IMG/VR virus record: IMGVR_UViG_3300048033_001096
Location: 64,001 to 128,000 of that record
From: a virus
DNA length: 64,000 nt
Reading direction: 5' to 3' (one strand)
Both the position numbers and the translations under genes were made by a program. Positions within the stretch are counted from its first letter, which is position 1, and the number at the start of each line of letters is the position of its first letter. Below are positions 32,247-34,623 of this stretch, one piece after another. The notes under the pieces were generated by a model. It saw only the letters and a program-made list of their open reading frames with translations. It had not been told where the DNA came from and did no database searches.

Positions 32247-33566
32247 ATGAAGATATCTGATATTTTTGTAGAAACAAAAAAACTTATTATTGAATCTGTA
32301 TTTGAGGTTGAAGGTGGAAGTATATTAAGCACTGGTAACCGAGCTTTGGGATATAATGTAGTAGATACTCGTTTACGTCCTAGTGATCCTAGATATATAA
32401 TTAACACTTTTGACACTGCAACAGCAGCCGCAAACTATAGTGACGAAATTAATTTAGAGTTACAAAGAAATTCAAGATTTGATCCTCGTACTGCTAGGAC
32501 TACTCCTCCTGGAGCAATTGCAACTACTGGAACTAAACCTCCACTTGAATGGGAAGATCTTAACGATGACCGAGGCAGACTACCGAGGCAATATCGTCTA
32601 GCACTTCAGAACCCTGGCTATATTACTCACGGAGGGCACAGATATACTCGCCAAGAAATAGATGCGTTTAGTCAACTAGCAACAACTCGTCGTGCGCAAA
32701 TGATGAGAGATGTTGAAGCAACTAGACCAAAACTTCTTAACATGGATGCTGAAGATGCAAAAAATCCTCGCGCCTGGGCAAATCGAAATGTTACATTTTT
32801 GAATACATTAGGAGCTAGATCTCTTGCTATGTTCTTTCCTTGGAACTTTCGTCCTGGATTGCAACTAGCAGCATACGTATCTCTTAAAGAAATGCTTATT
32901 CGTATGTATAATACTGAAATTACTGATAACACAACTCCAGCTGAAGCTCGAGAAAAAATACAAAGAGTATTTGGAATGTGGTTTGTTCTGTTTGTTGCTC
33001 CGGGATTACTTGCAACTATGACTATGGGTACTCGAGCAGCAATTGCTATATTTAGAACTATGATTAGATCTATAAACCTTGCATCAATGACTACACAACA
33101 AATAGCTAGTTTTGTAGGCGGACTACCTGGAGCAACAGTGATGTTAATTAAAAACGTAATTCAGTTTTTATTAGTTGAAGCATTACTATATACTGTTGCA
33201 AGAGCAATTTTAATGAGGCCTGAAGTTCAAGTGTTATTATTAAACGCAATGGGCAATCATTACGCAAGTAAATTAGGCGAATGGGGATTTGAAGGAGCCG
33301 AAACATTAAACACTTTTGTAACAGCACAACTTAATGCAGAAATAATTCCTACTCTAAACGCTACGTTTAGTGAAGTCGAACTTGAGGAAGTACACGGAGA
33401 CGCTATGACAAATTTGAAACTAGATCCAAATGATGCGCCAGTAGGACAACCTGAAGTAGATGACGGTAATGGTGGAACAACTCCTGAGGCTCAGCCACAG
33501 CGACAAACGCCTGACGGTCAGCCCGATCCAGATGCTAGAAGGCCTCTTAACATTGACGATCTTTAA
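32247..33566 (+). CDS. Hypothetical protein with hydrophobic helices; possible internal/ejected virion protein (439 aa)
   Basis: Late promoter; N-terminus MKISDIFVE..LIIE; several hydrophobic segments (VFGMWFVLFVAPGLLA, VIQFLLVEALLYTVA); acidic, Pro-rich tail. Confidence 0.6.
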   Translation: MKISDIFVETKKLIIESVFEVEGGSILSTGNRALGYNVVDTRLRPSDPRYIINTFDTATAAANYSDEINLELQRNSRFDPRTARTTPPGAIATTGTKPPLEWEDLNDDRGRLPRQYRLALQNPGYITHGGHRYTRQEIDAFSQLATTRRAQMMRDVEATRPKLLNMDAEDAKNPRAWANRNVTFLNTLGARSLAMFFPWNFRPGLQLAAYVSLKEMLIRMYNTEITDNTTPAEAREKIQRVFGMWFVLFVAPGLLATMTMGTRAAIAIFRTMIRSINLASMTTQQIASFVGGLPGATVMLIKNVIQFLLVEALLYTVARAILMRPEVQVLLLNAMGNHYASKLGEWGFEGAETLNTFVTAQLNAEIIPTLNATFSEVELEEVHGDAMTNLKLDPNDAPVGQPEVDDGNGGTTPEAQPQRQTPDGQPDPDARRPLNIDDL

Positions 33567-33802
33567 ACCATTGGCATTTTAGTGTTCTTACTAACTTCGA
33601 TGTTTTCTTGAATAATTTTTCCTAGTATTTGTAAATCTTCAACATCAGTGTCAGTAAGTAAATCTTTTGAATCTACTCCTCCTCGCATGTACCAAGAAAG
33701 TTTATAGATTTCGTGTTTAATTTGTTTGATTTCGTTTTCGTAATCGTTTGATAGATCCTGTATTTCAGAATCCGAGAGTGGGATTAGTATTTCAAGAAAA
33801 AA
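33563..33802 (-). CDS. -1 frame extension of the gp26-like gene (gp51/gpT-like segment)
   Basis: Open frame FFLEILIPLSDSEIQDLSNDYENEIKQIKHEIYKLSWYMRGGVDSKDLL...KNTKMPMV*. No start codon for the first ~38 codons; begins at the slippery T TTT TTC (33802-33796). Confidence 0.7.
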   Translation of the reverse strand, partial: FFLEILIPLSDSEIQDLSNDYENEIKQIKHEIYKLSWYMRGGVDSKDLLTDTDVEDLQILGKIIQENIEVSKNTKMPMV

Positions 33803-34623
33803 CTCGAAAAATCCAAATTAGCTTTAATTTTGTTAGTAGCTTGACATTCACTACAAACTACTTCTGTAATCGGCGGTTCGAGTGCAGCAGTGTTTTTTGC
33901 ATAAACTTTTTGTATTTCATTAAAGTATACACCGTCATTATTTAAAATAAAATCGTTTATAAATTCTGAATTATTTTCAATGTCTCCGTCAGGTGTTGTT
34001 ACATCAACAACTACTTGACAAATTATAGATTTTGTTTGAGTATTAATTTGTTCGTAAAGTACATCCATAGCCTTATCTTTATCATCTTGAGACATATCTT
34101 TATTTTGTGTAATTTGCATAAGCTCTCTGCGAACTTTCATAGACACTTGCTGATTTTGTATAATTTCTTTGTATGTCAAAGGTCTAAGTCTAAACACAAA
34201 GTCATCAACACTAACATCAAAAGATAATTTTGTTTTCATAAAATGATCTAAGATTGATTGTACAGGTAATCCGTAAGTATCATCGTGAGTACAACTTGTA
34301 CATTTTGTACTCATAGTTATATTTTCACCGTATGTGGCAAGACGTATTGCAGCCATAACATATTCAAAATCGACACTAGCTAGTTTCCATGCATTTTTAA
34401 TTGCTGGAACACAACTTTCGATAACTTTTACAGTTGCATTACCTGTAATTAATGCATCAGGTGTTTTTGCAAGTATTTCGTTACTAGCAGTCATACTATA
34501 GACTTCTAGTTCTTCAAACTTTTCGACTATGTTATCATTGTACCAAACACCTTTGCTGGGTAAATCGATATATAATTTTGGTTGCCGTTTATATTTTTGT
34601 AACGGACTTGTTAAGTTTTCCAT
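33784..34623 (-). CDS. gp26: Baseplate hub assembly chaperone gp26-like (279 aa)
   Basis: 'PL.KY.RQPKLYI.LPS.G', 'MTA..EI....PDAL..G', 'D......AIR.A.YG', two CxxC pairs (CTSC, CSEC) and the '..SFF' C-terminus typical of gp26. Confidence 0.8.
   Translation of the reverse strand: MENLTSPLQKYKRQPKLYIDLPSKGVWYNDNIVEKFEELEVYSMTASNEILAKTPDALITGNATVKVIESCVPAIKNAWKLASVDFEYVMAAIRLATYGENITMSTKCTSCTHDDTYGLPVQSILDHFMKTKLSFDVSVDDFVFRLRPLTYKEIIQNQQVSMKVRRELMQITQNKDMSQDDKDKAMDVLYEQINTQTKSIICQVVVDVTTPDGDIENNSEFINDFILNNDGVYFNEIQKVYAKNTAALEPPITEVVCSECQATNKIKANLDFSSFFLKY

Follow-up and report, generated by a model that had tools for sequence, protein, structure and literature searches.

A baseplate hub assembly gene of the gp26/gp51 family in T4-like phages probably carries a programmed -1 frameshift

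Frameshifting of the G/GT type is among the most conserved recoding events in biology, and Xu, Hendrix and Duda reportedly described in 2004 a conserved -1 frameshift in the tail assembly chaperone genes of long-tailed phages. In phage lambda, one gene lying between the tube and tape measure genes, on the same strand, gives a short product (G) and a C-terminally extended one (GT) at a fixed ratio through a -1 shift near its 3' end. The E/E+E' gene of the contractile-tailed phage P2, which makes a tail assembly chaperone pair by a proven -1 shift, has a -1 site that is annotated in NC_001895 as GGT TTT TTG, seven codons before the E stop. The roles of the "hub assembly catalysts" gp26 and gp51 of phage T4 have been unclear since the 1960s. 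Table 2 of Leiman et al. (2010, PMC3004832) places both among the chaperones of hub assembly; gp51 is needed for assembly and is absent from the particle, and the T4 hub contains the tape measure protein gp29 (PMC3004832). A review by Atkins et al. (2016, PMC5009743) describes G-T frameshifting in the long-tailed phages as conserved "except T4". Here we analyze a stretch of 64,000 nucleotides, hereafter the window, which covers positions 64,001 to 128,000 of the IMG/VR record IMGVR_UViG_3300048033_001096, a 169-kb fragment of an uncultured marine phage of the giant-phage type. On its minus strand lies a gene of the gp26/gp51 family in which, judging from comparative sequence analysis, a programmed -1 frameshift very probably takes place on the heptamer T TTT TTC.

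In its design, this gene comes closer to P2 E/E+E' than to lambda G/GT. The heptamer is T TTT TTG in P2 and T TTT TTC here, and in both cases the short form stops within a few codons of it; the two products (predicted ones in the window) share their N-terminus; the -1 open reading frame (ORF) lacks a start codon; and the gene lies in a module of tail or baseplate genes next to a tape measure gene, for which the window has a candidate. The proteins themselves differ, P2 gpE having 91 amino acids (aa) and the hub protein 279 aa with zinc-ribbon-like CxxC pairs, and hhalign found no sequence similarity between the hub family and P2 gpE (0.1%). The P2 gene also lies directly 5' of the tape measure gene and on the same strand, whereas the candidate tape measure gene of the window is divergent. 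With lambda, the window gene shares the scheme of a single gene with a short and a C-terminally extended product, a -1 shift near the 3' end and, by prediction, a fixed ratio; the lambda-type placement is absent from the window. No homology to lambda G appeared by sequence, Pfam and PHROGs giving only the baseplate-hub family, and solved tail chaperones gave no fold match in searches that covered mainly the central helical hairpin. Because neither homology to P2 gpE nor a fold resembling the solved chaperones was detected, we keep the gene out of the G/GT protein families and read it as a gp26/gp51 family member that would work like a G/GT pair. The original prediction had linked gp26/gp51 to the G/GT chaperones; this link stands as a likeness of design and role, that is, as an analogy, and found no counterpart in sequence or fold homology.

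Read directly on the minus strand, the 279-aa ORF ends TCG AGT TTT TTC TTG AAA TAC TAA (Table 1). The run of T's occupies 33802-33797 and the C is at 33796. The -1 frame is closed shortly 5' of the heptamer and then stays open for 79 codons (FF plus 77) until a stop at 33565-33563, which overlaps by 4 nt the stop of a convergent 439-aa gene. This -1 ORF contains a single canonical start codon, the ATG of codon 38 that encodes the M in a WYMRGG motif, and no GGAG-like sequence precedes it in the window. The predicted products have 279 aa (short) and 276+77 = 353 aa (long). The original prediction had the in-phase heptamer right to the base, and its other readings of the locus agree with ours: the closing TAA followed by 77 open codons after the slip site, a first ATG about 38 codons in without a Shine-Dalgarno (SD) sequence, the interlocking stops, and products of 279 and about 353 aa.

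By profile, the 279-aa protein is a member of the family of T4 gp26 and gp51. It matches Pfam PF12322 ("T4_baseplate") over residues 48-276 with 44.2 bits against a cut-off of 24.5 (E value 2.3e-11), and it falls in PHROG 150 ("baseplate hub"). The same model scores T4 gp26 at 215.6 bits and T4 gp51 at 177.5 bits; since both match this single family strongly, the two T4 proteins are paralogues. Across 85 homologues, C108, C111, C257, C260, F275 and F276 are invariant and D271 is conserved in at least 90%. The two Cys pairs are zinc-ribbon-like, and the window protein has the C-terminal D..(F)F motif; in T4 gp26 the second Cys pair is present as CPEC and the C-terminus reads EFFELL. T4 gp51 likewise has the CxxC pairs, and a C-terminal D..FF or D..F motif is common to the window protein and both T4 proteins. 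The closest cultured relatives are the jumbo phages RaK2, 121Q/PBECO4, PA5oct and Atu_ph07, at ~28% identity. An AlphaFold 2 (AF2) model of the 279-aa part has a predicted local distance difference test (pLDDT) score of 88.8 and a predicted template modeling (pTM) score of 0.83, and its BFVD matches are solely models of "Baseplate hub assembly protein, T4-like" from many myoviruses, with template modeling (TM) scores of up to 0.87. Against the PDB, Foldseek gave no match at E<=0.001 for this model, and Foldseek and VIA-align returned only generic helical matches for both the 279-aa part and the extension, the VIA-align rows covering the central helical hairpin only (Z<=8). A sequence search against solved structures yielded nothing for the hub family.

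Comparison among relatives shows that the presumptive shift site is conserved. The clade set comprises 84 loci, namely 80 from IMG/VR (34-68% identity), Atu_ph07, PA5oct, 121Q and the window; the IMG/VR relatives came from an alignment-based search, a single-protein search having given no close relatives. The sequence NNT TTT TTC stands at the invariant FF motif in 84/84 of these loci, about 3 codons before the stop, and the heptamer is also present in four further cultured jumbo phages (Erwinia Hallingskeid, Sinorhizobium Phosso, Xanthomonas XaC1 and Klebsiella RaK2). This makes 88/88 related loci with the heptamer in phase, at hub-protein identities as low as ~26-28%. Conservation among homologues had been proposed as a check in the original prediction, with a homopolymer sequencing error as the alternative to be feared; the presence of the arrangement in 88 independent loci excludes such an error.

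The conservation extends to positions that the protein does not constrain. All three synonymous sites of the heptamer are fixed in the 84 clade loci and the 4 cultured phages. Elsewhere in these genes, Phe is encoded by TTT in 90% of cases and by TTC in 10%, and the second F of the motif is always the rare TTC. The residue preceding FF varies (S, D, N, G, H, R) and its codon always ends in T (AGT, TCT, GAT, AAT, GGT, CAT, CGT); the codon one further 5' is free at its third position (TCA, TCG, GCA and others). With amino acids and codon usage taken into account, this pattern has a probability of ~10^-60 for 48 representatives of <80% identity and ~10^-26 for 21 representatives of <60% identity, both figures being optimistic owing to relatedness. 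The conclusion that selection acts at the nucleotide level is independent of the exact size of these probabilities. Several loci read TCT GAT TTT TTC, in which a -1-frame TGA abuts the heptamer, and there a change of frame is therefore possible only on the heptamer itself. In relatives, the zero-frame stop comes 1-14 codons (mostly 3) past FF.

The -1 ORF is, on comparative grounds, a sequence that encodes a real domain lacking its own start codon. It has 79 codons in 74/79 complete loci and 73-80 in the others, and across loci the -1 frame is closed 0-29 codons 5' of the heptamer. The extension peptide is conserved from the first residue past the slip site (FFRxRL..S(D/N)xEI...ENEIKQIK...WYMRGG...ENIExTK..MPL). 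Column entropy by codon position (1.13/0.72/1.45) is that of a coding sequence, and this -1-frame coding signal, which the original prediction had asked to be looked for, begins at the slip site. AF2 run on an alignment of 53 extension peptides gives a three-helix domain with a pLDDT of 90.1. In relatives, the first ATG mostly encodes the conserved M of WYMRGG (codon 38) or lies at codon 20 or another conserved position, and the homologues have no conserved independent start upstream of WYMRGG. The PA5oct -1 ORF contains no ATG, GTG or TTG throughout, and the extension ORF is unannotated in NC_071039. More generally, gene callers give the extension as truncated pieces of 41-98 aa, or not at all, owing to this lack of a start codon in the -1 ORF.

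The strongest single argument for the extension acting as the C-terminal domain of a hub-family protein comes from homologues in which the two parts appear fused in frame. The extension profile, compared with 1.8 billion representative proteins, gave 296 matches, and ~19 among the best 150 are proteins of 319-351 aa that carry the domain at their C-terminus and whose N-terminal parts are PF12322. These proteins are only 19-47% identical to one another and are therefore not sequencing errors. Their junction, LD(W/F/Y)SxxFRx(K/R)(L/I)(I/L), is colinear residue for residue with the predicted LDxSxFF-RxRL, which matches the junction register of the original prediction. They have a single F where FF would be expected, and hence no slippery site. 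The fused homologues are known here as protein sequences, and their status as fusions rests on 19 diverged clusters with the single F at the junction. The phages that carry them presumably make the long form only, or make a short form in some other way. The extension profile also matches a 1435-aa protein in five stretches (best 1235-1281, E 7e-10), either a repeated domain or a coiled-coil artefact.

The RNA past the heptamer is structured in many relatives. A stem GGCUA(R)NNN.../...NNN(Y)UAGCC, beginning 6 nt past the heptamer, is present in 23 distinct sequences; another 13 have GCCUAA.../...UUAGGC instead, whose 3' arm lies 7 nt farther downstream. The two sets were chosen by the outer five pairs, and the inner five pairs of the 10-bp hairpin were left out of the selection; these inner pairs are formed in 95.5% and 100% of cases in the two versions, and both partners have changed in 34 and 9 cells. 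The observed pairing was reached in 0 of 500 shuffles, and shifting the partner by 1-3 columns abolished it. The zero-frame stop (UAA/UAG) within the 5' arm covaries with a Leu codon (UUA/CUA) 30 nt downstream. In most of 54 representative lineages, the 60 nt past the heptamer are more stable than other parts of the locus: their minimum free energy (MFE) is in the top 5% of local values in 43% of the lineages, with a median rank of 0.07. On the 5' side, the Leu codon two codons before S-x-F-F is TTG or CTG in 35/39 lineages, against 18% elsewhere in the genes. The resulting conserved GGA, 9-12 nt 5' of the heptamer, pairs with the anti-SD sequence over only 3 bases; it may act as a weak SD-like stimulator or belong to an RNA structure.

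The same arrangement occurs in other T4-like phages. A PF12322 search of complete genomes found two genes in T4 and one each in Atu_ph07, PA5oct, 121Q, RaK2, S-PM2, P-SSM2, HTVC008M and KVP40. The KVP40 gp26 gene ends GAT TTT TTC GTA TAA, and the next ORF, in the -1 frame, is annotated as "baseplate hub assembly catalyst" with similarity to a 40-aa stretch at the T4 gp51 C-terminus. The S-PM2 gene ends TCT TTT TTC GCA TAA and is followed in the -1 frame by a 57-aa "gp51"; P-SSM2 and HTVC008M are arranged like S-PM2. Among the 75 parsed loci related to S-PM2 gp26, which are of the cyanophage type, 74 have TTTTTTC and 1 has TTTTTTT. The small "gp51" ORFs KVP40.0327 and S-PM2p208 share position, -1 frame and heptamer with the window and are evidently equivalent to its extension, although they are annotated as free-standing whereas the window extension is proposed to be part of a fusion. 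No joined, frameshifted coding sequence is annotated in the records that we inspected.

T4 itself is built differently. Its gp26 (208 aa) and gp51 (249 aa) belong to the same PF12322 family as the window gene, and gp51 has an extra C-terminal domain in the position of the window's extension, of ~50 aa against 77 aa. In T4, the two forms come from two separate, divergently transcribed genes without a slippery site, gp26 ending GAG TTC TTT GAG TTA CTA TAA, and in the window a single gene is predicted to make both. The original prediction was right to treat gp26 and gp51 as separate genes in T4. The idea that gene 51 follows gene 26 there is wrong: gene 25 comes after gene 26, and gene 51 is divergent. 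For T4 gene 26 (7803-8429 of the retrieved locus), the annotation gives gp26 and also a product 26' that starts internally (7803-8090); T4 makes nested forms of its gp26 chaperone by this other route.

The claim that the gp51-like part is made by recoding fared unevenly across lineages. It agrees with the single PF12322 gene in the genomes that have the heptamer and with the -1 ORFs of the cyanophage/KVP40 type, which match the T4 gp51 C-terminal domain over 60 columns from the junction (hhalign 97.0%, E 1.2e-10). For the window clade the profile link is moderate: with the fused forms included, the C-terminus matches that of gp51 at 48-63% (hhalign, P 7e-5 to 1.9e-4), and the full-length fused family is colinear with the gp51 family to the end (48%, E 1.8e-4). 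The extension profile alone gave no significant match to T4 gp51, as a single sequence or as a family, and the window-clade extension had none to the cyanophage-type ORF directly (2%, hhalign). Because this profile link is weaker, the equation of the clade extension with the gp51 part rests mainly on position, frame, heptamer and the FFR motif. In precomputed annotations, gp51 homologues carry a second family, PF28602, presumably the gp51 C-terminal domain; it is not assigned in the precomputed annotation of the fused proteins.

The simplest reading of this distribution would be that most T4-like lineages have a single recoded gene and that T4, with its close relatives, has a duplicated pair, 26 short and 51 long. 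We go further with divided confidence, holding it about evenly balanced that the frameshift is ancestral to the T4-like assemblage (RaK2/PA5oct/Atu_ph07-like jumbo phages, cyanophages, pelagiphages and KVP40), that the 26/51 pair of T4 is its duplicated, de-recoded descendant, and that the tape measure protein (gp29 or its equivalents) is the target of both forms, in the manner of lambda G/GT. The direction of the T4 change is presumed from the distribution.

We infer that the shift in the window is ribosomal, with an efficiency such that most ribosomes would stop at the zero-frame TAA (33786-33784) and release the 279-aa protein. Some ribosomes, with tRNA-Phe on UUU in the P site and tRNA-Phe on UUC in the A site, would slip back one base on U UUU UUC and read 77 more codons in the -1 frame, giving a protein of 353 aa that joins residues 1-276 to a 77-residue helical domain. 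Both forms would probably be non-virion assembly chaperones for the baseplate hub/tape measure complex, produced by one gene in a fixed ratio, like lambda G/GT and P2 E/E+E'. In T4 and its close relatives, paralogues would have taken the place of recoding, with the short form supplied by gene 26 and the one that has the additional C-terminal domain by gene 51.

Several observations weigh against the frameshift as we propose it. The conservation of TTTTTTC could partly reflect dual coding (FF in frame 0, FFR in frame -1), an explanation that itself has the -1 frame read through the heptamer site. A strong downstream stimulator in the window itself is unsupported, its structure being weak and not significant (local rank 0.29, z -2.0), and about one third of the lineages, the window included, have no convincing hairpin at the right distance. 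The chaperone role is drawn from T4 genetics and the neighborhood and not from the window protein. Finally, an ATG overlaps the zero-frame stop or lies just past it in 121Q, Atu_ph07, KVP40 and many cyanophages, with TAATG or ATGA in some, and there the small ORF could also be expressed by translational coupling.

This last point touches the idea that the -1 ORF forms a small gene in its own right ("gp51"), without any fusion; ribosomes would terminate and reinitiate at the gp26 stop, or begin at a start codon that is internal or non-canonical. Databases do annotate the small ORF as a gene (KVP40.0327, S-PM2p208, 121Q gp595, Atu_ph07 gp687), and 46/75 cyanophage-type loci have an ATG at codon 5. 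In at least 21/75 of these loci, however, Leu replaces the codon-5 Met and the first ATG is the conserved internal Met, and the window, PA5oct and many other loci, such ATG-less cyanophage ones among them, likewise have no start codon near the conserved N-terminus of the ORF. Amino-acid conservation starts at the heptamer itself, free-standing translation would leave the invariant synonymous sites of the heptamer unexplained, and in the fused homologues and T4 gp51 the domain works as the C-terminal part of a PF12322 protein. We consider a separate gene very unlikely.

Transcriptional slippage, in which RNA polymerase would stutter on the six T's and add one U in some mRNAs to give the long form, appears to us just as improbable. 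The site is a homopolymer run, and a U insertion and a -1 slip are inseparable by sequence because both yield the same protein. Yet bacterial RNA polymerases need runs of ~8-9 or longer for efficient slippage, for which six T's are short. The full X XXY YYZ heptamer is moreover conserved in a fixed phase and with a fixed final C, and the covarying hairpin 6 nt downstream in many lineages has the geometry of a ribosomal -1 stimulator and not of a transcriptional one. That there is no recoding at all, the open -1 frame being a relic or a by-product of composition and the 279-aa protein the only product, is the least credible alternative, and the comparisons speak against it: in >150 loci from several phage families, the -1 ORF has kept its length, its sequence and its codon-position pattern, its predicted fold is confident, and fused homologues exist.

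Searches of full-text literature, including a 2016 recoding review and papers on PRFect, the PA5oct omics, the T4 tail and T4 genomes, and with subscription-only journals outside their scope, gave no mention of a frameshift in gp26/gp51. If the programmed -1 frameshift is true, a strictly conserved site in the gp26/gp51 family of jumbo phages, cyanophages and KVP40 would explain the orphan mini-"gp51" ORFs that appear in genome records by the hundreds, a core gene of T4-like phages would have its annotation corrected, and the two paralogous "hub assembly catalysts" of T4 would gain a rationale. If it is also ancestral, T4-like phages would be a disguised case of the tail-chaperone frameshift rule and not an exception to it. 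This would raise the questions of whether gp26/gp51 chaperone the tape measure protein and whether the ratio of the two forms sets correct hub and tail assembly.

Table 1. Coordinates of the proposed recoding site and of neighboring features in the window
Feature	Position	Strand	Basis
Zero-frame ORF, 279 aa, T4 gp26/gp51 family (baseplate hub assembly protein); short product	33784..34623	-	PF12322, PHROG 150, AF2, BFVD
Slippery heptamer T TTT TTC, in phase (X XXY YYZ), proposed -1 shift site; AGT TTT TTC = S274 F275 F276	33796..33802	-	direct reading
TAA closing the -1 frame, 5 codons 5' of the heptamer	33818..33820	-	direct reading
-1 ORF, FF + 77 codons + stop; C-terminal extension domain of the predicted 353-aa long product	33563..33802	-	length, entropy, AF2, fused homologues
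Zero-frame stop TAA, 3 codons past the heptamer	33784..33786	-	direct reading
TTG GAT (L270 D271), 9-14 nt 5' of the heptamer; third-position G of Leu conserved, giving GGA	33811..33816	-	codon counts
Possible two-tier stem-loop 3' of the heptamer, outer UAAUC/GAUUA, inner hairpin 33753-33773; weak candidate stimulator	33740..33787	-	MFE -10.9 kcal/mol, z -2.0
737-aa neighbor, candidate tape measure protein, divergently transcribed	34693..36906	+	synteny, RaK2 annotation, feature neighbors
Portal gene, directly after the 737-aa ORF	36908-38665		
Convergent 439-aa gene	32247..33566	+	

The hub gene, the divergent 737-aa ORF and the portal gene are arranged in this way in at least 51/83 related loci. 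The RaK2 homologue of the 737-aa ORF is annotated as similar to a tape measure protein, and its language-model (protein-atlas) feature neighbors include tape-measure clusters at 0.93; Pfam, PHROG and a sequence search against solved structures gave it no assignment, and we take the tape-measure identity as a lead only. No tube gene adjoins the hub gene in the window. In KVP40 and S-PM2, the order is a tube-family gene (PHROG 45), gp26, "gp51" and a large ORF without identification as a tape measure, which recalls the order of tube, G/GT and tape measure. From T4 and this neighborhood, a chaperone pair acting on the hub/tape-measure complex would be the most likely role.

The large same-strand ORFs right after gp26/"gp51" are KVP40.0326 (656 aa, 143-2113 of the retrieved locus) and S-PM2p209 (~1167 aa, from 2857 of the retrieved locus), the latter with weak peptidase and endolysin-like matches; both are unannotated and placed where a tape measure gene is expected. 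In PA5oct (NC_071039), an "ESI-MS/MS" note from the virion proteome is attached to the portal and its 798-aa neighbor but not to the hub gene, as would be expected of a chaperone outside the virion. The convergent 439-aa gene has no match in Pfam or PHROG; it has long hydrophobic stretches in its central third and is kept only in the three closest relatives (45% identity).

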